Below the pieces are notes generated by a model that saw only the letters and a program-made list of their open reading frames with translations, was not told the origin of the DNA and searched no databases. Of a stretch of 64,000 bases of DNA, positions 3,896 through 64,000 are shown one piece after another (the first letter of the stretch is position 1; each line of letters opens with the position of its first letter). The DNA comes from Iphione sp. A-MEVVRFRX5 (taxonomy: Eukaryota), in contig OZ320318.1 of the NCBI GenBank assembly GCA_976226885.1, positions 17,360,001-17,424,000 of the forward strand, written 5' to 3'. The translations under genes and the position numbers were made by a program.

Positions 3896-4290
3896 TGTGT
3901 AAAACATTTTAGTTTTGTCATGGTGTCAGAAAAGTTTTTTTCTGATGTTCCACTGCAATGTTTAAAAGACATTACCTTTTTATGTTGCTACAGTCTTATA
4001 CAATAACATTACTACAACAAAAACACAATGTTGCCAGAGTGTTGTGGCAACATTACATTGTTTCCTAGGTCATTCTACTGCTGTTGTCTAACCATACTCC
4101 CGCCATCCTCTGGCCATCCCCTCGCCATCTTTCCTTCTGCTCATGGTCTCCTGTGTTCTACCCTTGCCTGCCTGCCATCTACATTTGTGCTCCTACCTTC
4201 TTCCTGTGGTCTCCTGCCTTCTACCCCTGCATACCTTCTACCCAGCCTGCCGTCTATATTTGCACTCCTACCTTCTGCTCTTGTTTCACT

Positions 4291-10689: not shown

Positions 10690-11935
10690 TAACCTTTACT
10701 CCGCCAGATACGTCCATATCTCAGTATGATTCTGGCTTGTACCCGCCATCAAGGAGGAAGTCATTATTAATATCGATCACCCCATCAACATCTCTGGTGA
10801 GAGGACAGTCAGGCCTTAGGGGAGACAGGCCATACTTAGCATCTGTGTACTCACATAGTCTGTTATGAATGACAACTGAGGCATCCAGTAAGATCTGCTC
10901 ACTTTCCTCATCAAAATCAGGCACCATCTGCTTTAGATCCATGGAAGGCAATGTTTTGCACCATAGCCTTCACGGCCCATAATTAGAAAGGCTTGACAAT
11001 CAATCAGCTTTGTTAGATACAACTAAAATGCCCAGGGACTCCTTCTGCGGACTGCGCATGGACCGTTCTCTTTAACCACCAGATCCGTTGATCATAGCTC
11101 TTCCAATCATGATAAAGTTTATGCCTCATCAAATTACAATATGTCACCCTTCAAACCAAGATAGCATGAAATGTAACAGGTGGCCAGATGCCCAGCCGCA
11201 TTCTCACCACAGCTGGGATCGAACGCTTATCACAGAGCAGCATGATGCTGGTCCGACACTGGTCACCCTGTCTTTGTTCATTACACAAACAGAAATCTGA
11301 GCAGGAAGCAACACTTAGGCAACACATGATCAAGCCAATCAAAATATCTAAACAAGAATTATTGCAGAGAATCTCTGATGCGCATTAAAATATTCCTGCC
11401 AGCCGCTTGCCCCCCACTATTCTTTTTCGAGTGCAAGGTATAAGTATCCCTCACCTCCAATGAGAGAAGGTGCGTTTTCATCACTGTGTCAATGCACCTT
11501 GTCACCTCCTACCTCCACGCTCGCAGTGTCTCATTCTTCTCCTTCAGGTTAGTCATTTCCCTCCTTAGAGTCTGCATCTCACTGTCATGTTTTTCTTTCA
11601 GCAATTGTAGCTCAACCATGACAGTTTCAACCATCCGCCTCACATTATCATGTGCGTTGCGGCGTTGACAGTTGACAGAAGACTCTCCTTTGTCGATATT
11701 TCCTGCCGTCCCGCAGCACTCTGAAATATCATCTTCTTCACCATCCGGTCCTTATAAATCTTCGCTTCCAGGCTTTGAATGTTAGTTCTCCAATTTAGTA
11801 ATCGAACGAAGTACAAGAGTATCTCCCCATGCAGTACCCTTGTGACTTGTTTGCGATCTCATGCTTCTTTTAACGTGGTATCGCCTGAACTCGGGGAGTG
11901 TTCAAAGCATGTTCTACTCAGCAGCCGCCATTAGT
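10690..11935 (-). mobile_element. Element D: internally deleted, 3'-truncated member of the NADAR/SGNH LINE family
   Basis: 5' motif TAATGGCGGCTGCTGAGTAG at ~11935-11915. Coiled-coil remnant MVETVMVELQLLKEKHDSEMQTLRREMTNLKEKNE. NADAR C-terminal tail GGQAAGRNILMRIRDSLQ* (11359-11420). ORF2 homologue at 11260-10721. No EN-RT seen downstream. Confidence 0.75.
10721..11260 (-). pseudogene. Element D ORF2: degenerate SGNH-fold protein (stops and frameshift)
   Basis: IMLLCDKRS..PPVTFHAILV*RVTY..HKLYHDWKSYD aligns with A (VLLVCDYRT..PPMLLYAIMVKRAMY) and B. EESEQILLDASVVIHN..LSPLRPDCPL..DG..NNDFLLDGGYKP aligns with A (EEDQVRLDAQVMIHN..LAPIYLDHPV..DG..NHDYLEEDGMTP). Confidence 0.8.
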
Positions 11936-31278: not shown

Positions 31279-33978
31279 TCAGGTCTTCTGGCATAAGGTT
31301 CCATGTCCTGACCCCCCTATATGAAGGGAGGATGCGAATCTAGATGTTTTAGGCTTGCACATCTTACCCCTCCTCCTCCCTCCAGCTCGGGTGACTGACC
31401 CCCTCGATTCAGGCAACAGTTCCATCTGCAATAACCGGTGTAACACCGACAAGCCTCGTGCGTCAATAAGATCCCTGACCCTTGGAATACCTAGTTTCCT
31501 CTGTAGAGAGATTGCAGTCTGTTCCTTATTTGTGACTAGTGATACCCTTGCACACCTATCGACACAAGCTTGCAGCCGCACTACATCAGAGCTAGCAATG
31601 CCATACAGAGTGCATGCGGAGTAGACCAAATGCGACAGCACCAGACTCCTAAAGAGCATGCATCTTATGTGTACTGGAAGCAGTAGTGTTACTCTCGCCA
31701 GTTTGATTGCCGCCCCCCGCATCTTCGATCTAATTCCCTTAACTGCGTTTTTAAAGTTAAGTTTCCCATCAACATTGAACCCAAGCAGCTTGCCGTTTGT
31801 TTTGGCTACTAGTTTTTCTCCCTTTACGTGCAGGTCCAGGTCTAGTCCCGAGGCTTTACTAAGAGGCAGATGAGAACATTTGTTGATGCTCAGGATTAGG
31901 CCGTTGTCTTCACACCACCTACTCACCGCTTCCATCGATCTCAGACACATACCCCTCAGGTGAAGCAGATCCATGCCCTTTACCAGAAGGGTGATGTCGT
32001 CTGCATATAACACTGTGTCTACTCCGGGCGGTAGGAACCCCTGCAATGTGTAGACAGCCATTAAGAAGCCCAGAGGCCCCATTACAGAGCCTTGTGGGAC
32101 TCCAATATCCACTCTGACCACATCAGATTTGTGGCCCACGCACTCCATAAACTGATATCTCCTCGATAGATAGTCCCTTAGTAGTGATACAGGCTTACTA
32201 CCTGACCCTGATCTTATGAATTGGGATATAACCCTGTCTCTACTGACTAGGTCGAATACCTTTTTCATGTCGAGCAGAATAAGACACACATAAAGGCCTT
32301 CGTTCATGCAATCCAGGGTGTCACATACTAGCTTACTTATGGCTGTGTCCATTCGACGCCCCTGCCTAAACCCATGTTGATTGTCACTTAGGAATTTTCA
32401 TGCTTCTAGCTCCTTCACCAACTTACCACAAAACCAGGCCTCACATAGTTTTCCCGGTAGGGACAAGATGCTTACTGGTCGATAGTTGGCAAGGTCATTT
32501 TTGTCTCCTTTTTTGAATATCGGGCACACTCTTGCGATCTTCCAGCGATCAGGAAATCTTCCGGTTAGTAGACACATCCCAAATATCCACACCAGGAACT
32601 CCACATTAAAAAGAAGAACGGGTTTTAAAATACGGTTTGGTATTCCCTGAATTCCTGAAGATGCAGTTGAACTTTGCTAATCAGCCTTCTCACCTCTTCA
32701 ACTCTAGCAGGTTCGATCTCATACCTCTTGTCAGTCGGTGGAGGAATGGCCACTACATTCACTATCTCTCTAGACATGGTTTTGACCTCATCAACAAACT
32801 TCTTGTTGAACTCACTTGCCAGCTAGTCACCCCTATCCAGCTGGGGGCCTTTAGGCAACTGCAAGTCATGCCTACACCTGCCAAGACATTCATCCACTAC
32901 GTACCAAAGCAGTTTGGTGTCCTTCCAGGCCTTATATACTCTGTCATACCAATAAGCCTTTTCTTCCCCTTTTATAACCCGCTTTAACAGTTTTTTAGAT
33001 ATCTAAATATCGTTTCACTATCTACATCACCAGTGTTCCTCCAGTGTAATAGGAAATATTTCCTGTCCCTGACTAGATCAAGGGCTCCTTTACTAAGACG
33101 AAAGCCATCCCTTCTCCCCTTAACAGTGATTGATTTTGTAGGGCATCTTTCCTCTAGCAGTACACAAAGCTTGTCCTCAAACTTTCCCCATTGCTTTTCA
33201 TGGTCCATTGCTTCCAAGTTTGCCTCAGCTACAAGTCGTTCTGCAATTCACCCAGGTCTACCTTATCCCATTGCCTAATAGTGATCACCTGTTGCACTTT
33301 GCTATTCATTCCCTTTTGAAGTCTGATCCCAATGGGTAAATGATCACTAATCCCTAACATCCCTATTTCCCCACCCAGATGTCCATGGAAGTTCACCCAA
33401 ACATCATCAAGACATGAGCCTCCCTGCATCATCGTGCTTCCCTGAATGACCTCGGTGTATCCCCTACTCGAAAGAATCTTGGACAGAGTACCACTTCCTT
33501 TGTCATTACCACCATAGTTATAATTAAAGTCACCCATGATTGCAGTATCACCCATGCGTTTCAGACTTAATGTCTCCAGGACAGTGCAGAGTGTACTTGC
33601 AAAGTCTTTTATTTTTTGAGATGGTGGTCGATAGTAGGCAACCACAGTGATCGGTTTACAACGTCCCCATTTGAGGCGAACCCCCAACACCTCACTAAGA
33701 CCTTGATCTAGTTTGAATTTTAACTCCTCCTGCAATTCCATCTGTTCTAAATAATATATGACTAGCCCCCAACCATGCTTGGACACAACGCCGGCCCTAT
33801 CTTTCCTCACAAATCTGTAGCCTTGTATACCAATTTCATTATTGCCATAACTGTCATTCAACCAAGTCTCTGAAATACAACATATATGTATTTGATCATT
33901 CATCATGTATTCCCTCAACTCAGACATTTTCTTTGGCATACTCCTAATATTCAAGTGAACCATATGCACTCCTTTCAT
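31279..33978 (-). pseudogene. Element A ORF3: apurinic-like endonuclease + reverse transcriptase, frameshifted
   Basis: MKGVHMVHLNIRSM, CISETWL, YYRPP, MGDFN, ISDH (EN); [42 protein letters not shown] (RT). Confidence 0.95.
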
Positions 33979-34988
33979 ACTTCTCACATAGGCTTGTGTA
34001 CCGTGCCCCCCCCCCCCCCTGTGTGCCACACTCCACTCCATTGTCAAGAACACCTCAGACACCCCACGTCACACACCTCCCTTTGCATAATGTTAACGCG
34101 AAACATATATACATAGGTTCATACATCGATCGGCCATAAAATTTTGCAATAGGCACGTCCAGTGAACTATGACCTCAATTATAAACACGAGTGACTAAAA
34201 AACAACAGTTGACAAAGCTCAGTGCCAAATATATTGTAAAAAAGCAAACACACAGGATTTTGTCCTTCTGGGATAGGATACTTATTAACGCATATACATA
34301 AAACATGAGTCATGGAAGTGCAAATATTGTATTACTGAATATTGAATACTGTAATTTTGAAGACACTCAAGTAAAATAGGAAAAATCTCAGGCAACAATC
34401 TTCTCATCAGACCTATATATTATAGATGCATAGTCACAATCCAGTTTCCTCAGAATGTCCTTTCTGGCAATGCACCTGTAATTAACTTGACTATTTAGGC
34501 CAAATAAAAAAAGTGATTTACAACGATGTCAGCAGGAAAACCTTCAGGATTACTTGTAGCATGAATCCCACTCTCTGTAGATTGTCAGTGCACTCTGTTA
34601 AGAGATAAGTCAGCAGACTAAACATGAATTCTTTGATCAGAATAAATAGATTGTTCCTTAACAACATACCGGACATGCAGTCTTACTGTGAGTATATGTT
34701 GAGATACTGGTTCATATCTACTTTGCTCAGATATGTAAGGATAAAATAAAGATGTACGTAAACTCTCAAGATCAATTTTGTAACCCTTATTTCCCTGCTT
34801 GGATCTGTAGTCAATGGAGTAGTAGAGTTACCTAGACTCATCAGAGGTCATCACTATTATGTACACCGAAGCATTGACGAATCAAAACAGATATTATACA
34901 TTACATCATCAGGACGACTCACATCGCAGACACATAAGCATAAATATACAGTTTACTTGAGCTGTTGGGCTACGTGAGACAACAGTTG

Positions 34989-35624
34989 TCAATGAAACTT
35001 ATGCGCGTACTCTTCAATTGACATTTTCAGAGTAAATATCCCGTCCATAATTGTGAGCTTGGATGGTGTCATTCCATCTTCCTCAAGATAATCATGGTTA
35101 GATTGCAAATGACCATCAATTCCCACATTGACCGGATGATCCAAGTAGATAGGAGCCAAACTTTTTGTCCTCACTGTATGTTCCCCTATCATGTTGTGGA
35201 TCATCACTTGTGCGTCTAGCCTCACTTGATCTTCCTCTGCATCCTCACGTCCAGTCAATTTAGCCATGTTAGCCCCAGCTAATGGAGCAATCACCAGCCT
35301 CGTCCCTCGATTGCAGCCAGCACCCATGCTATTACTCAGCCATGTAGCGTAGTACCTCATATGATTCTCAAATGCTCGCGGTGAACGGAGTCTCAAGACC
35401 CACTGACGCCCCACACACTTCAAGATGCTGTGTAGGCCCATAGAAAATATCACAAGATGGTATGTTCTTGTGTTCACGAAGTGACGCTTGCGAATCATCT
35501 GTCGATACATAGCCCTCTTGACCATAATAGCATATAACAACATCGGCGGGAGACTTTCGAGCCCCAACCTTCTGTCTGCCCTTGCCGTCCGATAATCACA
35601 CACGAGCAGCACACGAAGGCTCAT
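34989..35624 (-). CDS. Element A ORF2: SGNH-fold-like protein lacking catalytic residues (211 aa, open)
   Basis: Homologous to B and D ORF2 and colinear with the SGNH ORF of C. Block I reads VCDYRT, block III SMGLH, block V DGMT. Confidence 0.7.
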   Translation of the reverse strand: MSLRVLLVCDYRTARADRRLGLESLPPMLLYAIMVKRAMYRQMIRKRHFVNTRTYHLVIFSMGLHSILKCVGRQWVLRLRSPRAFENHMRYYATWLSNSMGAGCNRGTRLVIAPLAGANMAKLTGREDAEEDQVRLDAQVMIHNMIGEHTVRTKSLAPIYLDHPVNVGIDGHLQSNHDYLEEDGMTPSKLTIMDGIFTLKMSIEEYAHKFH

Positions 35625-35790
35625 GCCTGGTGCTCATAGCTCATTGTCTTTAATCACCACCTCTGTCGATATAAACCATAAAACAAAACTTAGACATCGG
35701 TTATGCACACACACAGGGCAGGTTACTAACATTCCCAGACTAATGAACAATCTTTAAGAACACCCTGCATTGTTCAATAACACGAGATCA

Positions 35791-37366
35791 TCATAGGCTG
35801 TCCGCAACCGAAAGATATCCATCTCTAAGCGACATCAACAAGTTCCCCAGAACATTTTCTCCCTTCAGTTTCTCCCCGTCAACGTCATTCGGTAGTCTCG
35901 GGCCCCTACCATTTCCCAAGATGGCGTCCCTATCACAAAAAATAATCTCTTGGCCCACTGTTTCAAGCAACGCTTGCTTCGCTGACACAGAGCAGTCATA
36001 TTTGCTTTTCAAAATTCTACTCAACACTACCTTGAGCTCATTTTCCCATCCTTCAGGGTCTTGTTAATTTGCTGCAATCTTGTTAATTTCAAGTCGACTC
36101 CTCGCATTAAACAGATCACGTTCTTTCTGCGCGCTTTTGCCTCTCTTCGCCTTCTCCACCACTCTTGTACAAGGAGTGAAGCATATCTCCTTGAGACTTA
36201 GATGAATTTTTCGATGGGATCAAATATTCCGGGAGTTTGCCGACATCCCTTGGTGTTATCTTGTTGCCATCAAGGTGGAGGTCAAGGCCATTCACTGACA
36301 CATGCATACCATGCCTTCTAGCAGCTGATGCCACTTTTTTGAGAAGCTGATGTTTATCCATCACTCTATTAGGTATGTCTTCCTTGAAGAATATTCTTTG
36401 ACATCCGCTCATCTTGGATAATCTACCTTTCTTCTGCAACACTTGATCCCTGATATCCATTTTGAGGTATGGGCCACTATCGTCAATGCAGATAATGTCG
36501 CTGATTATGTTCCGCTGAAGCCCAGTTGCCCTCACTACCACATCCTCAGTAAATTGGTACCTATTTACCTCCTCGTGGTTTGGTACCCCATCCACTATCA
36601 TCTTCCACGAACGATCATAGATTTCAATCCTTGAGACATCTTCATCTATTATGTCCACAGACCTTTCGGTTGCTTCTAACCGACTCTCGACCGTCTTCAA
36701 TCTGTCAGAGATTTCTTGAAGTTTGCTGTCAGTCACCCTGTTGTCATATTTCATACCTTCTATGCCGATCTTGATACCAGTTATGTCATTTTTCAGGTTA
36801 ACAATCTCCTTCATCACGTTGTTGGTCAGTTCCTTTACAGCTTGTTCCAGGACTGTCAGCCTGTCCATCCCCAACATCACAGCCTCCTTGTTTGTCGTTC
36901 CTTGAACATTCGACACACCATCTGCATCATCGACACCGTCGGCGTTGATGGTGGGTGCCTTCTCAAGTGACTCAGATTGCAGACTTCTTGGTGAGTCATC
37001 ATTGTCAACCCTACTTCCTAACCCTCCTATATCAGACGGGCCAGTATCAGTCTCAGTCTAAGTCTCCGATACATGTGTGATTAGGCCTGTCCCATTGTCA
37101 ACACGACCTGCTGCATTACCATTCTTCACCTGTTCCACTGTTGACTGAGCTCTATTCTTTGGCGGTCTCCCTCTTTTCTTTGCACTTGTTTGTGGCTGGG
37201 ATTGCTCTGTGCACTCATCTCCCACTCCAACCTCATTGTTTACGTTTCGTGGTGTTCCCGCCTTCCGTCCCTTCCGAGTACACCTAATGTCGCTCACCTC
37301 TGTCGACTCAGTTGGGAAATCCATTAAATCCCCCACTGAGAGGTTTTGACTGTGAAGTTTTGACAT
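35791..37366 (-). pseudogene. Element A ORF1: AT-hook + coiled coil + L1-type RRM/CTD + degenerate NADAR (premature stops, deletion/frameshift)
   Basis: KKRGRPPK; coiled coil LEQAVKELTNNVMKEIVNLK...; RSWKMIVDGVP..IFFKEDIP (RRM). NADAR pieces GWENELKVVLSRILKSKY..KQALLETVGQEIIFCDRDAILGNG..GENVLGNLLMSLRD. Confidence 0.85.
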
Positions 37367-37599
37367 TGACCTTAAAACTGGTGTGTTTGAAGCAAAGTTC
37401 GGCGAGTTAAAATGAGGAATTCCGATGTGACATGTTAAGGTAAAAGGCACTGGCACCGGGGGGATAGCACGGGTACGTCTACACTACTCGGCAGCCATTA
37501 TTTAAACTTGAAATACATCTTTGTATATTTCTGTCCAAATAACAATGCCTTTATGAGGCGACTGTCGGAAATAAAATTTCATTCTATTCTATTCTATAT

Positions 37600-45000: not shown

Positions 45001-46483
45001 ACACACAGATAAACAACAAAATTGAATCCTAGTATGATCTACTGCCTAGCGCCAGAGTTGTTTGAGTCTTTACAGACATATTCTGACTGAAAGATAGTGA
45101 TGTGTTATTCTGGATAGCAAAGGGACTGATGTCAAGATATGAGGTACCGTGTATGCAGTTACACATCAGCCTATTATTCATCACCATCAACCCAAGGAGG
45201 GTCGTATTTGCTTGCATAAGTAATGCATATGAGCATAACCAAATTGATGTTATTACTCCCAGAGCACCTAATATCTAGCTGTTGCCAGTAATGGTTCTTG
45301 TGCAAGGGCCAACCAGTGAGTCCATTGTGTGTACAGACCACCAAAGTGATAAGCTCAGTACTTTTCAAGCAAGTTTGCGAACTGCTTTGCACTCAGGATC
45401 ATCATGCTGAAGATTAGCTACCTTTCTAATTGGGGATTTCAGTGTGAATTGGTTATCCCTCCCACCCATTCCACAAGACATAAACTTGGTGATCTTATTT
45501 TCGGGCTTGGCCCCAAACAGCTTCTCACAGGCAGAACTAGACTGATGACTTGAACTTGTTGAGATATAACATCTTAACAAAGCTAAATTATGTTGCCTTG
45601 CAAAAATGACATCTGCTTGAGTAGTTTTAATCCCATGATACATTTCTATATAAGTAGGAATTAGCCCATGCACGATGGATATTTCCTATTAGACTGTCAG
45701 ATAATAAACACTATTCTTACTACAATTAAACCTGTTTCACTTGAATGGGCTACATTGTAGCCATCCTTAATCTTATTCATCTTGTCTCTACCAGCAACAG
45801 CCATACATAGAAAAATGCAATTGAAATGATCCTTTAGGAACACTCTTAGAGCAGCTCAGCATACATCAGCAGACAAACTCTTCTTTCAGTTTGTAATTCT
45901 GTATTAAATTTGTTGCATTCGATAACCATATATTTTATCATAAAACTATGTTTAAGCTGCTACTATATAAAAATTAAATCTACTCACAACATAGGCAATT
46001 TCAGATAAATTCACTGAAAAACCTGGTCACAGCTGATGGTTGCAGTGTGCTTAACAGTCATCTCTATGGGGCTTCATAGAAGGGTCATTCATTCATTACA
46101 TCTGAGAAGTCTAGAAGAGTAAATTTTTATGATTTGATAAACATATTTTGAGTAATGAATTACAACAATCGTTTCTAAATATATTCATTCATCTCTGAAT
46201 CACCAGGTAGCAGTTCTGAGGACATACACATAGGGTCATCGTACAGGTAAGACCCAATTTCTTAAATGTAGAGGATCATTGTAAAAAGATGAACTATAAC
46301 TATAACAATGAATTCCTGCATTGGAGATTAATAAAGCTTAACAAATGTTCATATGAGCCTTTAAAAATTGGTTATATATATTAACTGTATCATCATCTTT
46401 GGAAAAGTTCATACGAACATGGCGACTGAGTAGACGTGTTATGAGTCGGCTCCACCAGTAAGGTACACCATCGATCAATCAAC

Positions 46484-48124
46484 ATGGGTAAATGCTCTGC
46501 GCTGAATAATTCAAAAGGCACTGGTCTTGTGAACACACCTGTGTTTCGTCCAAGAGGAAGAGGTCGTTCCCTAATGCATGATTCTCCTGCCCGAAATGGT
46601 ACCCTGAGGGTGGGTGATAATGGAGGAATGACGGCAGATAGATCGGGTGTCAAGGACGCCGTAAACAAAGGCGCTGTCAAAGAGAGTGGTGACAACGATG
46701 CAGACCGGACCGGGTGCGGCTCTGCTGGCGCGCCGGGGACGGATAATGTGACAGTCGCTGTTGACAGTGCTGACAAGCCAAGGAATACGGAGTCCGAGCC
46801 GAGCCCTGGAAACGACAACAACGGTGAGTTGACGGGAGAAGATAATATGGCCAACGATGACACTGAAGCAGGCTCAGACTGTGCTAAAAGATCGAATACA
46901 AGTGGAGGTGGATCCAATGATTTGACTGGAAAACCTGATTTGCAATTTGATGTCAATGTCTTAAACGAGCTGAGGCAGGAACTGAACAGTTTCAAAAAAT
47001 CAACGTCAGAAGAGATCAGAGCACTTAAACAGGAAATCGCAGTGCTGAGGCTTGATAAATGTAGATTAGAGTCTCAGCTGAGGAATGCTGAAGCTGAGAA
47101 AAAGATGAACGATGAGTCGTCTGAGTGGAGCGCTATGAAAGCAAAGCTCGAGAGTGTGAAGTTAAAGTGCAACCGAGTGGACAAAGACCTATCCAGGATG
47201 GAGATCTCGAATCGATCTAGAAGGGTCATTGTTGAAGGAATTCATAAATCAAATGCCAAAAACCTGCATAATTATCTGACGAAGCTGGTTCGCGATGTTG
47301 CCAAGATCGACAAGCGTGATGTGTCAAGCACTTCCCTCGTCGCAGAGGATGACCGGAGCATTCGTGCGATGTTGATCTTTGAGACTCATCAGCACAGGAA
47401 CAACTTCATGAAGAACAGGGCAAAGTTGGCGACCATACAACAATATAGCAACATCTACCTGAGAGAGGATATCCCAATCAGGGCCCAGGATTCGTATAGG
47501 AGGCAATGTAGGGTAGCTTCGGCTGCTAGACAAGCGGGGAGACGCGCGATGGTGAAAGGCTTGGACGTAATTATTGACAGTGAGAGATTCGCCCCTGGGG
47601 ACAGTGATGCTCTACCGACCGACGTGAAAGAGAAATTATTTCAAACAAACGAGGTCGAAGGAGAAATACAGTTCACCAATGTGACCCCCGGGCTGTCTCC
47701 AATGGAACATACGCTGATGTTTATCAATAATGAATTCTTCGAAAACATCGAAAGTGCGTATCAAATTGCAAAGTCTCGCGAGTGTGAGAGTGGGACGAAG
47801 GTGAAGGCCATTCGTGACTCGACAAGTGGTTTTGAGGCGAGACGTTTGGGATCGAGCATGGAAACTTTGTCAAGATGGGAGGAAGAGTGCGAGGTAATAC
47901 TTGAAAACCTGTACAAACATAAGCTCCTATTGCATCCGCAGTTAAAAGATTGTCTGCTTCGTACGGGTAAACATCGCATTTCATATGTTGACTGGGACTT
48001 GGTACTTGGAACTGGGATGCGGTGGGGAGAAAACCGGTCTGATCCGGATAAACTGAGCGGAGCGAACCTGTTGGGAAGGGTTCTTCAAAACATACGTGAC
48101 ACTGTATTGTCATCTTCCTCTTAA
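46484..48124 (+). CDS. Element B ORF1 (546 aa, open): disordered N-terminus, coiled coil, L1-type RRM/CTD, C-terminal divergent NADAR domain
   Basis: Coiled coil LNELRQELNSFKKSTSEEIRALKQEI; RSRRVIVEGI..IYLREDIP. NADAR-like FENIESAYQIAK..WEEECEVILENLYKHKLLLHPQLKDCLLRTG..LGTG..GANLLGRVLQNIRD. Confidence 0.9.
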   Translation: MGKCSALNNSKGTGLVNTPVFRPRGRGRSLMHDSPARNGTLRVGDNGGMTADRSGVKDAVNKGAVKESGDNDADRTGCGSAGAPGTDNVTVAVDSADKPRNTESEPSPGNDNNGELTGEDNMANDDTEAGSDCAKRSNTSGGGSNDLTGKPDLQFDVNVLNELRQELNSFKKSTSEEIRALKQEIAVLRLDKCRLESQLRNAEAEKKMNDESSEWSAMKAKLESVKLKCNRVDKDLSRMEISNRSRRVIVEGIHKSNAKNLHNYLTKLVRDVAKIDKRDVSSTSLVAEDDRSIRAMLIFETHQHRNNFMKNRAKLATIQQYSNIYLREDIPIRAQDSYRRQCRVASAARQAGRRAMVKGLDVIIDSERFAPGDSDALPTDVKEKLFQTNEVEGEIQFTNVTPGLSPMEHTLMFINNEFFENIESAYQIAKSRECESGTKVKAIRDSTSGFEARRLGSSMETLSRWEEECEVILENLYKHKLLLHPQLKDCLLRTGKHRISYVDWDLVLGTGMRWGENRSDPDKLSGANLLGRVLQNIRDTVLSSSS

Positions 48125-48173
48125 TTGTGGGGTAAATCTACTTGTCAATGAATCCACTGGTACTGTGTATTGA

Positions 48174-48920
48174 TTTACAGAGTGGTCGATCGTTAGGGGC
48201 AGTGATCTTGATGGAGGCAGACGGTGTCGCGTCTTGTTTATCACCGACGACAGAACGCATACTGCCCTGACACTAATGATGCGGGAGAGCTTGCCACCCC
48301 TTACCATGCATATTCTACAAGTGCCCAAAGCAACCTACGAGTGGCTTTGGAAGGAGAGGTTCTACGTGGATGTAACATCTTATGACCTGATACTGCTGGC
48401 CATGGGCCAACAGGAGCTTCTACGATGGGAGACAGGTCAATGGGCGGTACGTCATCGGAGCCCCATGCGGTATAACGAAGTGTTGGGCTACTACATCAGC
48501 AAACTAACATTGTGGGCGCGTGGCCCAGTAGGAACGGGGCCGCGCTTGATGTGTTGCCCGATGGCTGGGATGTCGCTGAGCAGGATCGAGCCCGACATAA
48601 TTGATGCGTGCGAGCAGCAAATCCTGAACGCCATGTGTACGATTCATAACTACTATGCTGAAAGCACTGCGCTGCGATATGGCTTGACATCAGCTCGGCT
48701 GGACTGGCCGATAAACATCTATGACGCCAACAGCTTGTCACTGCGCTTGGACAGGCTTAGGCCAGATGGCGTAGCAGTGGTTGAGGAGGTCTGTGTAATG
48801 TGGGCACAGGCCCTTGCTGAGTGTATCAAGGCGTTCTCTGCGAAATACTGCTGGGAGCGGCGAATCATCAGTGTGCCGGTCTCATGCAGCGACAGCGAGC
48901 GGAATGTGGACAATGAGTAG
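48174..48920 (+). CDS. Element B ORF2: SGNH-fold-like protein lacking catalytic residues
   Basis: Frame open from 48174 with no in-frame ATG before RVLFITDDRT, so the start is uncertain. YDLILLAMGQQ and LRPDGVA correspond to SGNH blocks III and V. Homologous to A and D ORF2. Confidence 0.7.
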   Translation, partial: FTEWSIVRGSDLDGGRRCRVLFITDDRTHTALTLMMRESLPPLTMHILQVPKATYEWLWKERFYVDVTSYDLILLAMGQQELLRWETGQWAVRHRSPMRYNEVLGYYISKLTLWARGPVGTGPRLMCCPMAGMSLSRIEPDIIDACEQQILNAMCTIHNYYAESTALRYGLTSARLDWPINIYDANSLSLRLDRLRPDGVAVVEEVCVMWAQALAECIKAFSAKYCWERRIISVPVSCSDSERNVDNE

Positions 48921-50358: not shown

Positions 50359-53144
50359 ATGAGACCGCTGAACATAGTGCATTACAACGTGAGGAGTTTG
50401 AGGAAGAAGCTGACTGAGTTGGAGTTGAACATGACTGAGGACAATGTGTCCATATGCGTTGTCAGTGAGACCTGGTTAAATGACACTTATCAGGATGGGG
50501 AAATAGCAATTAAGGGGTACTACACAGTAAGACAAGATAGAGCAGGCAAGGGAAAGAAGCATGGGGGGGGCCTTTTGTTCTACATCAAGAAAGGTATTGA
50601 TTTGCGACACACATGGAGGTTCAATCACGAGGAGTCATTATGCGAAGCCTTGGGGGTCAAGGTCAAGGCCGGGAACAGAAGACCGATAAACATCATACAT
50701 ACCGATAAAGCATATACAGACCTCCCAACGACAAGATGAAGGACTCTACAGGGGCCATCTCAAATATCCTAGACAATGTGGGAAGGAGTAATAGGGAGGA
50801 CTTCATAGCCTTGGGAGACCTCAACTACTACTTGCGAGATTGTAACAAAAGTGGCGCTAGCATTAGTAATGCATTTGCTGGCCGCGGATATGTCCAGTTA
50901 CGGACGGGACCAACAATGGTGGACTCGGAAAGGTGCCTTGACCACATCTGGGTAAGGAATGTGGCGAAATGCTCAGCAGCGACGCTGACCTGGTGCCTTA
51001 GTGACCACCTTCGAGTGATGCTCAGATACAACAGAGGAGCACCAAATAGGACGACCATCGACTTCAGGGTAAGGAAGTGGCATGATGTGGATGTCACGGA
51101 CTTGCATGGACGGTTAGTGGATGGAGGAATGAACTTCAAAGAAGATCCTGAATTGACATGGACTGACTTTGAAGAGAAAGCAAAAGGCCATCTGCTGAAA
51201 ATGTTCCAGAGAGGACGGTGCGGAGGAAGATTGGTCAGGATGGGTTCAAATTGGATGCTGGCATCAGAGAACTCATTAAGGATCGCTGTTACTACTTAAA
51301 GAAATGGCCCCATTTCAGATCGGAAGATGACCGTCGTATATTCAGGTATCTTGATGCCAAGGTGCCCAAATCGATCAAGCGAGTGAGGTGAGACTATTGG
51401 TATACAAAAATTGGGGCATGTGGTGGTGACAGTAGTAGGCTATGGAATACTGTGAACGAAGTGCTAGGCCGAGCAAGCAACACTACAGTACTACCGAAAC
51501 AATCAGGCGACAGAGACGGTGTAGTAGGCAACCTAGCGGATTCACTTAACAATCACTTCGTGGAAGAGGCAAGGAAGTTATCAGAAAATGCTATGACAGA
51601 TTACAACGTCCTGCGCAGGAGAGCTTGTCCCTCATTCGACGTGGGCTATCCCACGCCAGAAGAGCTACGTCCGATTGCGCAGCAACTCAATGTGAAGAAG
51701 TCGTCATTGAAGGCCTCCCCTCGGTGGTGCTGAAGCCCCTGCTGTTGCATTCGTTGGATCTGCTGGCCTGGATATTCAGGCGTATGCTCATCACAGGCAT
51801 TTACCCCTCCAGCTGGAAAATCACGCGGGTCACCCCCCTATACAAGAAAGGGGATCCTAAGAATTTAGGGAATTACCGACCCGTTTCGATTCTCCCGCTG
51901 CAGGGGAAGGTATTTGAAAAGTGGCTAATGTCGAAGGTGATGAGCAAGATAGAGGAGAGCGGATACCTGGGCCCGCATCAGCAGGGGTTCATATCCACGC
52001 GGAGCACTGAGACAGCGATGGTTTTAATACTCAACCATGCAATGGAGAAACTGAATCATGGGAGGTACTGCTGTGTGATGGCTTTCGATTTTAAGAAAGC
52101 CTTTGACTTGGTCCCCCATGATTTGGTGCTTCGTAGGTTTGTGGGTGCTGGGGCTAGCAGGGAGGTGACCACCTTGATGAAAAACTACTTTGAGAGCAGA
52201 TACCAGTTTGTGAGCTGCGCGGGTCAGGTCTGGGAGAAAAGACAGCTAGTAAGTGGGGTGCCACAGGGATTGGTAGTCGGCCCACATGCATTCAACCTAG
52301 TGGTCGACAGTGTGGTTGACTTTATTCCCAGTGGGGTCAAGGCTGTGTTGTATGCAGATGACCTGACCCTGATTGCGGCGCCAACGACCTGTTAAGACTA
52401 AGGGCACAAGTGCAAAATGCGGTTGATGCCGTTAAAAGGTGGAGTACATCCGTCAGACTGTACCTTAGTGAAAAGAAGTGCCTCTACATGCCGCTGGGGA
52501 AGGCTGCGGGCTTCAACCTTGATGTATCGCTGAATGGGACATCACTCCAGATTGTGAACTCAACATCGTTGCTTGGTTACCAAGTGGATGCCAAGCTTCG
52601 TTTCAAGGAAAGCGTTAAGGCTCTGAAGAAAAAGATGTGGTCCGCTGCATTGAAAGTGGGAAGAGTGAAGAATCTACTCCCAATGGCTGCAAGAGTTCGC
52701 TTGTTGCGGGCTCTCGTCATACCACATCTGCATTATGCAGCGGTATTACTGTATGGCACACCGGCTGCTGACATCTGCAAGGTCCAGGTGCACCTGAATA
52801 GGTGCTGTAGGATCGCGCTTCAAACAGTTAACTACCTATCTTTGAGGACACTGTCAAGCAAATTCGGCATAGAGTGCGTTTCTGATTTAGTGGAACGCAG
52901 AGGGGTGATGGCCGTACATAGGCAGATGCAGCTGGGGCTGCTTCCACTGGCTACTGTATCAAAGATGAGGCACGGTGGCTTCTCCAGGATAAAGCTGGAT
53001 CGGCCTAAATCACAGAAGGCTGCGTTGTCTTTGAGATACAAGGGTGCCTCAGTATGGAACCGGCTACCGCCCTATCTGAAGAATTGTCCGAAACCAGCCA
53101 TTAAGGAACGGCTACTGGGACAAGCAAACGAAGCAAGAGCCTAG
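50359..53144 (+). pseudogene. Element B ORF3: endonuclease + reverse transcriptase, frameshifted
   Basis: MRPLNIVHYNVRSL, VSETWL, LGDLN, LSDH; [38 protein letters not shown]; thumb and C-terminal region to 53144. Confidence 0.95.
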
Positions 53145-58475: not shown

Positions 58476-58703
58476 GTTAAGATGCCCTCATAGCAACATG
58501 GATGTAATGGTCACCGGCTAGTGCGGAGCGTACTGACTGAGGGTCCGGGGAGAGGCTGAATTTTGGAAATTAGGAGTGGTCATTTATATCGATATTCTGT
58601 CTCTGTGTAGTATCAACAATTGTGACGACCTTGTTAGGGTGTATATGACATACATGGTAAAATTTGAGGTTCTGCGCGGTTTTAAAATTGCCGACGGTCA
58701 ATA

Positions 58704-60461
58704 ATGGGTGAAAAAAACGGGTACGACGTGTCTAGGGAGGGGGTAATACCTCAGCCAATACTGACGCAGCCATTATGTAACACTGCCCTGGTTTCGCAGA
58801 GTCTCCAAGTGCACACCGAGCCGGTTGTGCCCACTACTGAGGAGCATTCGGAAATCACAAAAAATCTCACTATCACAAACTCCCAGACGAGTATAAAGGA
58901 TTATATGATCAGTCAAACAGAAATGCAGGCTACGCCTAATGCCAGTGAAGGTGATAGCCGGAAGCGAAAAAAGGAGAACAGTCCCTTAACTGAGTTGCAA
59001 CTGAAGGGTAAAAATACCAATAATGACCCATCGAATCTCTGTGACCCCGCTGTCATCGATTTAATAATATCTGAAATTAACAGAAAGGGAGAGGAAACTC
59101 TTCAGGAAATTAAAACCTGCCTCACAAGTGAATGCACTATAATAAATGCTAAAATAGTAGAACTGACCTCGAAGTTGGAGACAAATGATGCGAAAATCGA
59201 TGCGAACACGGCAAAATTAAAACTTCTCGAGGATGAGTTTGAGGAGCTGAAGCGTGGTAATGCTGAGACCAAAGGAGAAGTTGACATATTGAAAAAGACG
59301 GATCGTGATAACACAAAACCCCTCAAAGATGACTTAGACAGCCTAAGATCAGATATATCAGGCTTAAACAATAGTGTGAAACATCTCTTGACAAATGGAC
59401 AATCGAGTGATTCTAAGACACCTATTGATACTGACCTGGATAAGAAACTTAGAATGAATAACCTATACATTGAAGGACTAGAGCTGAAAGAAGATGACGA
59501 TCTGATGACCAAGATAAGGGAACTGATGACAAGCATTGGAGTTGTTTTGTTGGACACGGATGTGGATCATCTGTATAAGGTTCCAAGACGACAACCCGGA
59601 TCTAGTCCTGGAGTGTTCTTCAAATTGGTTCGCTATACTAAATGTGTGGAAATCCTACAAAAGAAGAAAACCCTAGGTAAACGCAAAGTTTGGATCAATC
59701 GGGATTTGACTCCATCTGAGCGAAACGACCAATACATGATAAGGTCCACTGTCCGAGCAATCAAAGAACACTGCCCTGAACTGGAGTTCACGGTAAAAAA
59801 AGGTGGGATATATATTGGTGAAACTCTATACAGCGTAACTCAGCTCGGTGATATTCCAGAACTGAAGGATGTCAATGTACAGATCAGAAAACCAGCTGGT
59901 ACAACTGGAAAGTCTATCAGCGGGAGAAAGGCAAAAAAGGAGAAACCTAAAGCTAAGCCTAAGGACAATAAAGAAGCTGAAACATTGGCCTTCGCTGGTA
60001 GTTCCTCACCACTGTCTAATTTGTATGAAATGACCTTTACCTGGGACAACATCCAATTCTTACACGTGGAGCAGGCCTATACATATGCTAAGTGCAAGGC
60101 CGCTAATATTCAATCAAAGATGGCCAAAGCAATGCATATCACGAATCCCAAGGACCTGCGCCAATTAAGGCATAGTTTACCGGTAATAAATGACTGGAAC
60201 AAGCTTAAGTTAGAAATCATGCAGGAACTAATTTGGAACAAATTTGACCAAAACGCGATATTGAAAAAGAGATTACTAGAAACTGGAGATGCAATCTTAG
60301 TAGAAGCCACGACCAACAACTTCTGGGGGGCCGGTGTGGTAAAAAATTCGAAGCAAATCCCAAAGCATACATATCCAGGGTCAAACTGGCTTGGCAGACT
60401 TCTTGAGATAACAAGAAGTGATTTGAAGGCAGATGACGAAACGCCGATGGAGGATCAATAG
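58704..60461 (+). CDS. Element C ORF1 (585 aa): coiled coil + L1-type RRM/CTD + C-terminal NADAR (YbiA-like) domain
   Basis: RRM RMNNLYIEGL..VWINRDLT. NADAR from ~59979: SSSPLSNLYE..FLHVEQAYTYAK..WNKLKLEIMQELIWNKFDQNAILKKRLLETGDAILVEATTNNFWGAG..GSNWLGRLLEITR, matching the YbiA pattern FSNF..SEHYFQAQK..W....VM...KF.Q...L...LL.T....LVE....YWG.G...G.N.LG.LLM..R. Confidence 0.95.
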   Translation: MGEKNGYDVSREGVIPQPILTQPLCNTALVSQSLQVHTEPVVPTTEEHSEITKNLTITNSQTSIKDYMISQTEMQATPNASEGDSRKRKKENSPLTELQLKGKNTNNDPSNLCDPAVIDLIISEINRKGEETLQEIKTCLTSECTIINAKIVELTSKLETNDAKIDANTAKLKLLEDEFEELKRGNAETKGEVDILKKTDRDNTKPLKDDLDSLRSDISGLNNSVKHLLTNGQSSDSKTPIDTDLDKKLRMNNLYIEGLELKEDDDLMTKIRELMTSIGVVLLDTDVDHLYKVPRRQPGSSPGVFFKLVRYTKCVEILQKKKTLGKRKVWINRDLTPSERNDQYMIRSTVRAIKEHCPELEFTVKKGGIYIGETLYSVTQLGDIPELKDVNVQIRKPAGTTGKSISGRKAKKEKPKAKPKDNKEAETLAFAGSSSPLSNLYEMTFTWDNIQFLHVEQAYTYAKCKAANIQSKMAKAMHITNPKDLRQLRHSLPVINDWNKLKLEIMQELIWNKFDQNAILKKRLLETGDAILVEATTNNFWGAGVVKNSKQIPKHTYPGSNWLGRLLEITRSDLKADDETPMEDQ

Positions 60462-60558
60462 TTGTTTTCTGAACGCGCCCAAGGGCGGTGATACCAGCTG
60501 CGCAAAAATTATCCAACCTCAGCGTGCCCTAACTGTCTATGCGACACCTGATACCACC

Positions 60559-61242
60559 ATGTCTCTAGAGCGGTTCATTTATATATTCTCCAGTAGCCAT
60601 GGTCGAGGAATGCAACAAATTTTTTACCAGGAGGGGTGGAATGTCAATGTAAAATTCTATCCCGGTTGCAAATTGGAGGAGCTGACTGAGCACATTGTGT
60701 TTGGAAACTGGGACCCCTATCCCAGCATTATCGTCATTCTATGTGGAGGCAACAACGTGACAAGGCTCTTACGATGTAGAGACAGAAATGGAAACAGACT
60801 AAGGTATGTTGTCCCCCGTTACCATGCTTCGTTTAGTGCTGCTGACCAGCTTGAGAGCATCTACTGGGACTGTAGAACGAAAATACAGACCCGATATCCG
60901 TACAGTGTTATAATGTTATCTACCATCTTCAGTGTGGATTACGCTGTGACTAATTACAATCTCAACGGTTACCATGGTGACCATGAGGCTACCACACGCA
61001 TACAAGACATGATAAACCAAACCATAACACTGGTAAATCAATGCATAACGATGATAAATCATACGTTCGGCATTCTAACTCCGTGGTGCAATGCAGTAGT
61101 TCACTCCAGAAACCATGGTATGTGGAGGCATCGTCTAGTGAGACTCCGTGACGGTACCCACTTGGCTGACTACTGGAAGCGTAAGGTAGTGAGAAAGATT
61201 ATTAAAGCACTACTCAAACTATTGTATGGTAGTGGCTGGTAG
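60559..61242 (+). CDS. Element C ORF2: SGNH/GDSL-type hydrolase (227 aa from MSLERF)
   Basis: Block I IFSSSHG (nucleophile Ser), block II YPG, block III ILCGGNN, block V RDGTHL (DxxH). Confidence 0.85.
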   Translation: MSLERFIYIFSSSHGRGMQQIFYQEGWNVNVKFYPGCKLEELTEHIVFGNWDPYPSIIVILCGGNNVTRLLRCRDRNGNRLRYVVPRYHASFSAADQLESIYWDCRTKIQTRYPYSVIMLSTIFSVDYAVTNYNLNGYHGDHEATTRIQDMINQTITLVNQCITMINHTFGILTPWCNAVVHSRNHGMWRHRLVRLRDGTHLADYWKRKVVRKIIKALLKLLYGSGW

Positions 61243-62183
61243 TTGACTGACGGCTAGGCTGCTCCTAACTTCGCGTATGTGCAAGTGGGCTGAGGTGAAT
61301 GCACTATAACCAGGACGCTGTACACGCTCATGACTTCTTTGTCTCAAGGATGTTTATCCTGAAATTGACAAACTTTATTTATCAACCTGAAATGATGATG
61401 TCTGACCCTAGTTGTACACTGAAAGGATGTTTATCCTGATAATAATAATAAATAGGAGTACCTAATAACAACAATTAGCTATACAAAGTTAAATTGTGAT
61501 ACTACATCATTTATTGGTAATCCTGTTGACTATATAACTGTTAAGGATGTTTATCCTGAAAGTACCTGATACGTTACTACTGTTGTTAATGTTATTTGTC
61601 ACGAAGTTGTGTTACATATCAATCAAATAACTGATTGACTATATATCAACTATTCTTAATATACTGTGAGGTAGTTGTTTTTTGACCACTCCTAACTATG
61701 TAAGGATAATGCTAGAAAAGTACAATTAAAGATGTTGATTCATATGTTAATTAATGTTTTACTTGTATTATATTACAAGTCCTGTGTGTTTGCCTCCCTC
61801 TCCGTGGACCCGAAGCCGGTGACCGTATTATAATATTTCTCATTTTCACAATTTAATTCTCTATTAACTTACAATCTCTAGTTACATTAGAGTGAATCCA
61901 AATTATCTTATACTAATAATATTTGCTATCATAATTTACTCCTATCATTTTTAACATTTATTGGATTTATAACCAAAGACACTATAGAAGTTCTTTGAAA
62001 CGGTATAAGAGACATGAGATATTCACTAATAGGCATCTTTGGATGCAAACGAGGTACTATGAAGGTAATAATGAATAGTTACTCAATGAGGTTATTTACA
62101 AGTTGTGTTACAGATAACACAACATATCTGGTGGCTGCGATCGCTCCTATGAACAAGTGCGTATATTGGATGATGTTAACCAT

Positions 62184-64000
62184 ATGGCTGACCTAACGGG
62201 AATTTTTGGTATGTACCATATAAACTGCCAGAGTCTGCGAGGTAAGTGTGAAGAATTTGAGTTACTGTTTAGCACGACTGAACCGGACTGTATAGTTATA
62301 ACTGAAACTTGGTTAAGTGCAGAAATACCTTCGCAGCTATTTGAAAGGGTGGGGTATACTATGTTGAGGCAGGATAGAGTGGGTAGACGAGGTGGTGGTA
62401 TTCTTATATATTGTAAAGATTATTATGGAGTTAAATATGACATCCTGAGTACTAGACAGGTTCTGTGCGCAGATCTAGAGATGATGGTAGTCAACATTGA
62501 AATATGTGGTAACTGTACAATTCAGTTATATGCATGTTATAGGCCGCCGAATGGCAACCTCAACGAAGCACTTGATATCCTAAGAAGTACCATAGATAGT
62601 ATAAATGGTACAAAACATAGAAAGTTGTTGATAATTGGTGACTTCAACGTGGACTGGGCAACCAACAACTGTGCTAAATCTAAAGTAAAATATTTTTTTA
62701 CCGAAATAACACTTAAACAGTACATAACAGGGCATACAAGAGTTACCACTACATCTTGTACCATCATTGACCTTTGCTTCAGTAATCTAGGTGATACATT
62801 GATGTGTGATGTAATACATACTACAATTAGCAATCACTATATGTTACAAATGTTGATTAAAGATAGATTAAAGATAGTTAAAGAGGTTCGCACTTATGTT
62901 GACTATTCTGTGCTGAACTATATACTACTGCATCAGATGGTCATGGAAATTGACTGGACTGATATGTACAGATCTAATGATATAGAATACAAATGGGAGG
63001 TGCTCCTCTTAAATATAAAAAGAATAATGGATCAATTACTTCACACCAAAAAGTATACAGTCAGACGTGACACACCGAGGTGGGTAACTGGAGAGTATTT
63101 AGATTTGGTTCATATGAAACACCAAGCACGAAAAACATATATTGAGAGTGGAAATCCCATCGACTGTCTGAACTACCATATGTTAAAATCGAAAGTTAGG
63201 AAAGGTGGACAACAACTTAGAAAACGTCTAATAGAAAACAGACTAAATAATACTTCTGATAATCCACATAAATTTTGGCACAATTTGAAGTGTGAACTAG
63301 GCATGGGCAAGAAAAAGAAGGGAATCTGTACAGAAACAAGTTCAGAGGATACCTGCACCTATCAAGAGATAGCTGATAAATTGAATGAACACTTTGTCCA
63401 AGTAGGCCCTAAAATTGCCGAATGCCTAGGTGAAGAGGTATACACATACAGAGGTAAGATTACTGCCTGTCGTTTAACTTGGCGGGCAATTGACCTACTC
63501 GAAATAATAGAGAATATATTCAAGGTTCCAAATCATAAGGCTAGTATGATGCTGGATCTCCCCAACTATATCTGGAAAGACATACTCTTTATAATAGGAA
63601 CAGAAATTGAACACTTATTTAATTTTAGTTTTGAAAGTAATACTTTGCCTGTCGCCTGGAAAGCGGCTACTGTAACCCCTCTATCCAAATGTGAAGATAA
63701 ACAAGGATTCGACGTAAATAACTACAGACCTATTAGCCAGCTGCAGTTGATTAGCAAGTTAATGGAAAAAATAATATATGATAGAATAATGACATTTTTG
63801 GAGACGAATAACTTACTAACAGAATGCCAGCACGGTTTTAGAAATAATAGAGGGACCGACACAGCAATTTACACACTACTGGGTATGGTATACGAAGGCC
63901 TAAATTATTCTAAGAAGATCTGTGCAGGTTTCATCGACTTCTCCAAGGCATTCGATTCTGTTTCTCATGAAATACTACTGGATAAATTGACAAAAGTAGG
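62184..64000 (+). CDS. Element C ORF3: endonuclease-reverse transcriptase, open to the window end (partial)
   Basis: Manual translation from ATG 62184 (MADLTGIFGMYHINCQSL) found no stop through 64000: ITETWL, CYRPP, IGDFN, IIDL, ISNH, NYRPIS, QHGFR, FIDFSKAFD. Absent from the ORF track, presumably because there is no stop codon inside the window. Confidence 0.9.
   Translation, partial: MADLTGIFGMYHINCQSLRGKCEEFELLFSTTEPDCIVITETWLSAEIPSQLFERVGYTMLRQDRVGRRGGGILIYCKDYYGVKYDILSTRQVLCADLEMMVVNIEICGNCTIQLYACYRPPNGNLNEALDILRSTIDSINGTKHRKLLIIGDFNVDWATNNCAKSKVKYFFTEITLKQYITGHTRVTTTSCTIIDLCFSNLGDTLMCDVIHTTISNHYMLQMLIKDRLKIVKEVRTYVDYSVLNYILLHQMVMEIDWTDMYRSNDIEYKWEVLLLNIKRIMDQLLHTKKYTVRRDTPRWVTGEYLDLVHMKHQARKTYIESGNPIDCLNYHMLKSKVRKGGQQLRKRLIENRLNNTSDNPHKFWHNLKCELGMGKKKKGICTETSSEDTCTYQEIADKLNEHFVQVGPKIAECLGEEVYTYRGKITACRLTWRAIDLLEIIENIFKVPNHKASMMLDLPNYIWKDILFIIGTEIEHLFNFSFESNTLPVAWKAATVTPLSKCEDKQGFDVNNYRPISQLQLISKLMEKIIYDRIMTFLETNNLLTECQHGFRNNRGTDTAIYTLLGMVYEGLNYSKKICAGFIDFSKAFDSVSHEILLDKLTKV

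Follow-up and report, generated by a model that had tools for sequence, protein, structure and literature searches.

Can two enzyme-like domains, encoded side by side by one retrotransposon, lose their catalytic residues and still be conserved, and does such a paired loss mean that the two proteins work together? This question is raised by a 64,000-nucleotide (nt) stretch of the genome of Iphione sp. A-MEVVRFRX5 (GCA_976226885.1, contig OZ320318.1, positions 17,360,001 to 17,424,000 of the forward strand), here termed the window, which includes copies, designated A to D, of a long interspersed nuclear element (LINE). In copy B (from 46419, + strand) the first open reading frame (ORF1) ends in a NADAR domain and is accompanied by a separate frame encoding an SGNH-fold protein and by a broken ORF2. 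A preliminary description of the window proposed that the NADAR and SGNH domains of copies A, B and D became non-catalytic binding modules together and act as a functional pair. The explanation preferred here, to which a probability of roughly 0.6 is assigned, is that copy B is a dead member of a LINE clade with three frames, whose two domains have lost catalytic residues yet are conserved and are likely tied together by overlapping DNA signals rather than by protein pairing.

Architecture of copy B and sampling of its relatives

The genome searched comprises 1.18 Gb and the element family is huge, with 2,200–3,400 candidates per search, 150 of which were scored. All family counts derive from 310 fetched loci, reduced to non-redundant sets at 90 % identity, and this sample is biased towards the queries. 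Similarity between copy B and its two close relatives, L031 and L032, starts at position 46419, where a AANATGGCG motif (46419..46433, + strand), presumably YY1-like, provides an ATG that opens an upstream open reading frame (uORF) of four codons. A minimal uORF ahead of ORF1, with the ATG of this motif followed by an in-frame stop three to five codons on, was observed in most of the A- and B-type families displayed.

Both frames of interest in copy B are open (46445–48124 and 48174–48920), as previously claimed. ORF1 (46484..48124, + strand; 546 amino acids, aa) comprises a disordered N-terminus, a coiled coil, an L1-type RNA recognition motif (RRM) and C-terminal domain (CTD), and the C-terminal NADAR, and its family profile matches the L1 ORF1 protein structures 2ykp and 2yko (E 9e-7). 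ORF2 (50359..53144, + strand), which encodes an apurinic/apyrimidinic (AP) endonuclease and a reverse transcriptase (RT), is a single frame in L031 and L032 and is split over four frames in copy B, which is therefore dead. The C-terminal end of ORF2 is a WNxLP motif without a CCHC knuckle, which we take to be a CR1/L2-like arrangement. With AP endonuclease and RT in ORF2, and coiled coil, RRM and CTD in ORF1, the element is a LINE with a type II ORF1 in the sense defined in the relevant passages of PMC4120745.

Copies A and D belong to the same clade as copy B, hereafter the A/B/D clade. Copy A (31279..37483, − strand) is decayed, with a stop in the 19-nt leader described below (ATG at 36049), an early stop in the SGNH exon, and ORF1 and ORF2 both broken. 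In copy D (10712..11865, − strand) the SGNH frame is broken and a deletion, spanning the coiled coil to the final NADAR residues, joins the ORF1 N-terminus to the last NADAR codons; copy D thus has no NADAR domain, and the NADAR comparison within the window rests on A and B. Copy C (58686..64000, + strand) is a related LINE with Glu125 and Trp133 in its NADAR domain, and with Ser, Gly, Asn, Asp and His and an ATG of its own in its SGNH frame; as a reference it is not fully canonical, having Asn at Asp130 and Arg at Gly78.

The NADAR domain

The NADAR domain of copy B (47660..48112, + strand) scores 55.2 bits against a Pfam cut-off of 35.1, and its structural model (predicted local distance difference test, pLDDT, 93) was matched by Foldseek to YbiA (2b3w) and a NADAR (8bau) with template modelling (TM) scores of 0.75–0.76, which places it in the NADAR superfamily. 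Residues are numbered after 8BAU, an ADP-ribose complex, and their roles follow section 12 of PMC11543638. The motifs from which catalytic loss had been read all lie in place (ISYVDWDLVLG at 47978 in B; IIFCDRDAILG at 35946 in A), and the claim itself holds in part. Copy B retains Glu43 (47750), Lys50 (47771), Gly78, Trp89 (47876) and Asp130 (47996), and hence the catalytic Glu43 and Lys50, while Glu125 is replaced by Tyr (47984), Trp133 by Leu (48005) and a new Asp stands at position 127 (47990).

Position 125 is Glu in the YbiA subfamily, Asp in the BC4488 type and His in the phage type of NADAR. Glu125 is found in 0/47 A/B/D families (Tyr in 42, Phe in four, His in one), so that the YbiA-type catalytic residue is missing throughout. 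The phosphate side has been affected as well, with Trp133 kept in 1/47, Arg/Lys79 in 11/47 and Arg93 in 10/47 families, while a comparison set of 47 other families has Glu125 in 43 and Trp133 in 40. As judged from the alignments, the A/B/D site is remodelled, not erased. Loss of the acid equivalent to Glu125 abolishes efficient NADAR hydrolysis, according to the pertinent sections of PMC11543638, and a nearby acid is no substitute there; the NADAR of copy B is thus probably dead or much weakened as a hydrolase. The suggestion that it serves as an ADP-ribose reader or decoy has lost ground, because the residues that contact the pyrophosphate in 8BAU (Arg79, Arg93 and Trp133) are mostly lost, and a reader role for the A/B/D NADAR, at least in the 8BAU binding mode, appears doubtful.

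The SGNH-fold protein

The second frame of copy B corresponds to the predicted second exon of an SGNH-fold protein (48181..48920, + strand; 252 aa including the leader described below). A Pfam search of this frame gave no match. Its model (pLDDT 95) adopts an SGNH fold, with Z scores up to 15.2 and root-mean-square deviations (rmsd) of 2.7–3.2, and of the 55 Foldseek matches at E ≤ 0.001 those listed are nearly all SGNH/GDSL proteins. The B-type SGNH profile also connects to DSRG/DGxH proteins, one of them scoring above the Pfam threshold for Lipase_GDSL. Direct comparison of the B-type and C-type profiles is weak (probability 1 %, E 0.054), and homology consequently rests on the fold and on these bridging DSRG families. 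With Pfam and fold evidence for the NADAR, both domains are homologous to catalytic families, as had been assumed. Single-sequence searches with the SGNH protein retrieved nothing outside this genome and those with ORF1 only one protein, with a canonical NADAR, while searches of PDB sequences with the SGNH alignments gave no real match.

An active SGNH hydrolase was taken to carry Ser, Gly, Asn and Asp-x-x-His in blocks I, II, III and V, respectively. The motifs quoted in the preliminary description are present (TDDRT at 48243 and DGVA at 48765 in B; CDYRT at 35600 and DGMT at 35078 in A; CDKRS at 11234 in D). In copy B the nucleophile Ser is replaced by Asp (48249), the block II Gly by Lys, the block III Asn by Gln and the His by Ala (48774, in Asp-Gly-Val-Ala). 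Among the A/B/D families Ser is found in 8/47, the block II Gly in 0/47, the block III Asn in 3/47, Asp in 26/47 and His in 17/47, and thirteen different residues occupy the nucleophile position. Ser and His are both present in 6/47 families and the Ser-Asp-His triad is complete in 0/47, compared with 56 other families that have Ser in 52 (four truncated), Gly in 54, and Asp and His in all 56. The change of SGNH motifs is thus real and clade-wide, but uneven in its extent. Non-catalytic roles for the two domains are plausible, more firmly so for the SGNH protein than for the NADAR.

Two unusual arrangements of the domain were observed elsewhere in the genome. A 587-aa open frame (L223:2013-3773) consists of a tandem acidic repeat followed by an A/B/D-type SGNH domain, and is possibly domesticated or repeat-expanded, and a LINE endonuclease is fused in frame to a pseudo-SGNH at L222:1981-3633, probably via a truncated insertion.

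Selection on the two domains

Ratios of nonsynonymous to synonymous substitution (dN/dS) were calculated by the Nei-Gojobori method with bootstrapping, leaving out saturated pairs (infinite dS). For copy B against L031 and L032, respectively, they are 0.29 (0.18–0.47) and 0.23 (0.14–0.37) for the NADAR, 0.10 and 0.09 for the SGNH exon, and 0.09 and 0.08 for RRM/CTD. The L031 and L032 pair yields 0.23 for the NADAR, 0.09 for the SGNH and 0.11 for ORF2. Seven other A/B/D pairs have NADAR ratios of 0.06–0.12, and one unsaturated C pair 0.05, so that by these estimates the NADAR of the B family is somewhat more relaxed than in neighbouring families. The half of the NADAR that falls within the predicted intron described below is likewise constrained (0.09–0.25 in unsaturated pairs), so that the NADAR is selected as a protein. 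With overall ranges of 0.06–0.29 for the NADAR and 0.03–0.10 for the SGNH, neutral decay of both domains is rejected on this measure, and the view that the changes are more than decay stands.

Distribution of the two losses among LINE clades

A quick IQ-TREE phylogeny of the RT domains of 70 elements recovers A/B/D as one clade on a long stem (SH-aLRT 100), sharing its side of the tree with clade P (99). A lineage-level change on the stem of this clade, as inferred in the preliminary description from copies A, B and D, is therefore borne out, save that copy D contributes no NADAR. The shared stem does not, on this tree, reveal the order of the NADAR and SGNH losses. Clade P keeps Glu125 and the SGNH triad, and already has Leu at Trp133. 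Within the A/B/D SGNH tree, Ser and His need six changes each, which indicates piecemeal loss.

A large LINE clade, Q (L207, L208, L231-L278), constitutes a second pseudo-NADAR lineage, with a fully degenerate NADAR, and is separated from A/B/D by an RT branch with support of 99. Its 25 non-redundant families have Glu43 in 1/25 and Lys50, Trp89, Glu125 and Trp133 each in 0/25 (the columns near Trp89 being gappy), and a canonical DSR/PG/DGLH esterase, with DSR in 25/25, the block II Gly in 25/25 and DGxH in 24/25. To judge by these residues, the loss of the NADAR site, whether shared with A/B/D or not, did not take the esterase with it.

Predicted splice signals linking the NADAR and SGNH frames

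No conserved start codon of its own was found in the A/B/D SGNH frame, and copy B has no Met before block I. Met occurs at least seven codons before block I in 14/45 A/B/D sequences, at scattered offsets, as against 50/52 canonical families, mostly at −9 or −11. A first SGNH coding exon of 19 nt is predicted at 47875..47893 (+ strand), encoding MGGRVR plus one base in a shifted frame, with its ATG overlapping the Trp89 codon of the NADAR. It would be followed by a GT-AG intron of 287 nt (47894..48180, + strand) holding the 3' half of the NADAR and the ORF1 stop, and the phase of the 19-nt exon matches that of the acceptor. The ATG and an AG/GTA donor inside the NADAR occur in 47/47 A/B/D families, 0/56 others and 0/25 families of clade Q; in a control with synonymous recoding the number averaged 2.1 and never exceeded 6 of 47. 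In the codon alignment 46/46 sequences have AG followed by GTA as the donor Val codon, GTA being the rarest Val codon (405/2,128), and the ATG (xxA-TGG at Trp89) lies exactly 19 nt upstream of the donor in 46/46, with the leader open in 44. This overlap would account for the invariance of Trp89. The acceptor, YAG/AR with a pyrimidine tract (68 % C+T), lies at one fixed position in 45/45 alignable A/B/D families and in 1/52 others, and the predicted intron is 259–786 nt long across families.

Seven copies (L007-L013) are 99.3–99.8 % identical in the pairs displayed, from which it follows that the A/B/D clade moved recently, with the intron retained. A junction-pattern search for spliced genomic copies returned 0 matches, and a joined SGNH 5' end was seen in 0/129 copies examined. 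Alternative signals were also considered. A donor at the ORF1 start codon (ATG G/GT) was ruled out because the third base varies, and one at the YY1-like 5' end because GT is absent in two families and the phase is wrong. A generic donor scan across ORF1 gave nothing consistent, and upstream of ORF2 no conserved acceptor emerged; ORF2 starts with an ATG of its own in the 20 contexts displayed. Outside the A/B/D clade, the SGNH ATG of several canonical families of the F group (L131-L160) is, by eye, closely preceded by a pyrimidine tract and AG, and splicing from a non-coding exon may give access to the esterase there too.

Two motifs are candidate internal-promoter elements, namely CGCGCG (47543..47548, + strand; third-position z 7.5–8.1), which is fixed at synonymous sites, and TCTCGCGAG at Ser-Arg codons (47774..47782, + strand; third-position z 8.8). 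The CGCG count is 154, versus a mean of 83 and a maximum of 114 after recoding. CGCG words, and TCGCG-like words at the second element, are visible in the cargo copies described below, and their fixation at synonymous sites together with their presence in cargo suggests an internal promoter. The NADAR and SGNH domains are thus likely linked genetically, through a predicted splice by which the SGNH gene would begin within the NADAR sequence, an overlap that had escaped the pair reading.

SGNH cassettes in the cargo of LTR elements

Many A/B/D-type SGNH frames occur without a NADAR frame and without a LINE ORF2. Some are part of long terminal repeat (LTR) elements (L111-L130 with L057, L109 and L120; three genome regions) of 30.7–32.3 kb, with LTRs of ~1.4–1.5 kb that are 99.5–99.7 % identical. 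These elements encode Ty3/gypsy-type pol domains and a Baculo_F-like frame, and their cargo is variable and includes, on the opposite strand, the LINE-derived SGNH cassette. A further 20 cargo loci were assigned on the basis of 1.1–8.4 kb shared with those LTR elements and the absence of a LINE ORF2. In the SGNH tree the cargo state needs nine changes, eight of them forced by branches with support of at least 95, and repeated capture of the SGNH by this giant retrovirus-like element therefore appears likely. Cargo SGNH frames remain under constraint relative to one another (dN/dS 0.06–0.27; eight unsaturated pairs), while the NADAR remnants upstream of them are frameshifted. The 19-nt exon is retained in 24/31 cargo cassettes whose NADAR frame has decayed, which provides an independent sign of its use. 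For canonical SGNH loci, 0/60 had more than 300 nt of similarity to the LTR family, a weak test given that these loci span 3.6 kb and that cargo-like loci of that size also score low.

The same cargo region was found to contain a family of ~220-aa frames without a Pfam match, often in diverged tandem copies (L057:8960-9619, L110:1-3435, L108:5959-7405), and a C2H2 zinc-finger frame (L091:6342-7115).

Proposed explanation and alternatives

Under the explanation preferred here, a full-length RNA would give rise to ORF1p, an RNA-coating protein by its homology to that of L1 and bearing the NADAR at its C-terminus, and to ORF2p, and the RNA that is copied is this unspliced form, as the lack of splicing among the 129 genomic copies shows. 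A second transcript would probably start at an internal CGCG-type promoter in the CTD/NADAR region and be spliced from the donor in the NADAR to the acceptor before the SGNH frame, yielding the 252-aa product. This protein probably binds anionic membranes or RNA through its surface, without catalysis; the ZfL2-1 esterase still binds liposomes after mutation of its active site, as related in part of PMC3905857. Its target may be generic to retroelements or to the host, which would explain repeated capture and retention by an unrelated LTR family. The NADAR, probably dead or weak, would serve ORF1p as a binding or structural module. It is more tentatively put forward, as a possibility at clearly less than even odds, that the A/B/D esterase became a non-catalytic, separately transcribed and spliced accessory protein of general retroelement benefit (membrane or ribonucleoprotein targeting, or anti-silencing), and that a giant env-bearing LTR family, for which it is of value, took it up from different LINE subfamilies on at least eight occasions, promoter and splice signals included.

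Several observations weigh against this explanation. Both the splice and the internal promoter are predictions from sequence signals, and the strict donor motif is absent in 7/31 cargo cassettes. The number of cargo loci seen to lie between LTRs, within 31–32-kb elements, is only three, and cargo SGNH proteins could still partner NADAR supplied in trans by LINEs. The net charge of the A/B/D SGNH is mildly basic, with a median of +3 in LINEs and +8 in copies without NADAR. The long A/B/D stem bears both degenerations, which fits a joint change as well as coincidence. Clade Q stands beside A/B/D in a rough FastTree NADAR tree, whose support labels are unreliable after rerooting; the NADAR losses may accordingly share an origin, in which case NADAR loss would precede SGNH loss. 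Lastly, the A/B/D NADAR retains Glu43 in 45/47, Lys50 in 36/47 and Asp130 in 43/47 families (as well as Gly78 in 37/47 and Trp89 in 47/47), the new Asp127 is invariant (47/47), and position 125 varies between Glu, Asp and His among active NADARs, as reported in passages of PMC11125620.

The retained NADAR residues bear on the alternative that survives best, in which the NADAR is a remodelled but active N-glycosidase, acting on another substrate via Glu43, Lys50 and Asp127 (or Tyr125), and the SGNH protein alone is a pseudo-enzyme. Retention of Glu43 and Lys50 keeps it in play, Arg75 is also conserved (44/47), and the relevant sections of the literature record that phage AdfN requires the Glu43/Lys50 pair (PMC11257639) and that active phage NADARs exist in which position 125 is His (PMC11125620). 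It nonetheless seems unlikely, given that E173 of the E. coli C7 NADAR, two residues downstream, fails to rescue D171A or D171N (PMC11543638, in part), that Lys50 is lost in 11/47 families, and that the embedded ATG accounts for the invariance of Trp89.

Less probable again is the functional pair, in which both domains turned into non-catalytic binders together and operate as a single module, such as an ADP-ribose reader or decoy and its partner. In its favour, the changes fall on one stem, the two domains always co-occur in intact A/B/D LINEs, where both are under selection, and the overlapping signals could co-regulate them. An obligate two-protein pair would, however, co-vary in state with neither member persisting alone, and this was not what was found. 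Clade Q combines a degenerate NADAR with an intact esterase, and the SGNH was kept under selection without a NADAR frame in cargo at least eight times. In addition, the SGNH residues were lost piecemeal, Trp133 had already become Leu in sister clade P with Glu125 and the triad intact, and the pyrophosphate contacts of the NADAR are mostly gone. The least probable alternative, an SGNH enzyme with a site rebuilt from clade-specific invariants (the His of 'HN', 130/133, and the Asp of 'LDxP', 131/133, both absent from canonical relatives), is very improbable, as the diversity at the nucleophile position and the absence of the block II Gly and of any full triad outweigh the six families that keep Ser and His.

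Other features of the window

A fifth, decayed copy of the C type with NADAR and SGNH remnants lies at 42427-43984 (− strand). A tyrosine-recombinase-like frame, presumably DIRS- or Crypton-like, is situated beside a 196-nt direct repeat (57467-58471, − strand, and 56734-57448). The window further includes a single long frame for an EamA/SLC35-like transporter, probably a host gene (19571-20818, + strand), and a decayed DDE_1 transposase (4007-5808, + strand), which we take to be of the Tigger/pogo-like kind.

Comparison with known systems

NADAR domains of the YbiA family are known from Tx1 LINEs of Crassostrea gigas, where they lie in ORF1, and from Gypsy elements of Ectocarpus, where they lie in Pol (PMC12477816), the former resembling the present case as a retrotransposon-borne NADAR in a LINE ORF1. 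The passages of that source on these domains present them as conserved YbiA-type, and hold no mention of catalytic loss, a separate esterase gene or a splice. With the Phytophthora NADAR 8BAU, E. coli YbiA 2B3W and the DarT1 antitoxins, as characterised in parts of PMC11543638 and PMC11125620, copy B shares the fold and the residues Glu43, Lys50, Gly78, Trp89 and Asp130. The A/B/D domains differ from the NADAR ADP-ribosyl hydrolases in the substitution of Glu125 by Tyr/Phe and Trp133 by Leu, in having mostly lost Arg79 and Arg93, and in their fusion to an RNA-chaperone ORF1p.

The OSK domain of Oskar, which binds RNA, was among the matches in the fold search with the SGNH of copy B (5a4a; Z 12.4, rmsd 3.2), and ranks below active bacterial SGNH proteins, so that it represents analogy and not kinship. 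Oskar is an inactive SGNH-fold protein (PMC3905857, in part) and is similar in having the fold without hydrolytic activity, but differs in being a host germ-plasm protein. The SGNH esterase ORF1 of CR1/L2/RTEX elements, including ZfL2-1, is likewise a LINE-encoded SGNH fold upstream of ORF2; in the sections of PMC3905857, PMC4120745 and PMC13343379 that treat it, ORF1 itself encodes the active esterase, which takes the place of the RRM. In A/B/D, by contrast, the SGNH protein comes from a third frame next to a type II ORF1, does not have the triad and is predicted to depend on splicing.

GDSL ORF3s of bdelloid rotifers are common to LTR elements and Athena Penelope-like elements, and Athena-L derivatives are catalytically degenerate (PMC5408684, in part). 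They resemble the present cassettes in that GDSL/SGNH cassettes move between retroelement classes and degenerate forms exist, but the bdelloid LTR copies are described there as having intact catalytic residues and as not clustering with LINE esterases. In the present genome, degenerate LINE cassettes appear to have entered LTR-element DNA at least eight times, with splice signals. Literature outside most subscription journals and Repbase reports yielded no account of a LINE that combines a degenerate NADAR with a spliced esterase gene, or of the capture of such a gene by LTR elements.

The A/B/D elements thus add a variant to the known accessory domains of retroelements. The genome offers natural contrasts, with both sites intact in C, F and P, a dead NADAR beside an intact esterase in Q, degeneration of both in A/B/D, and an esterase fold on its own in the LTR cargo. 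These contrasts show that the elements can do without catalysis while keeping the folds, and suggest that the pseudo-SGNH is the component of value by itself. A gene that depends on an intron is unusual within an element that is copied from RNA, and would imply that coding and template transcripts are separate. If the more tentative reading, that of an accessory protein of general retroelement benefit, is true, the A/B/D SGNH would represent a portable pseudo-enzyme accessory gene that is traded between retroelement classes.

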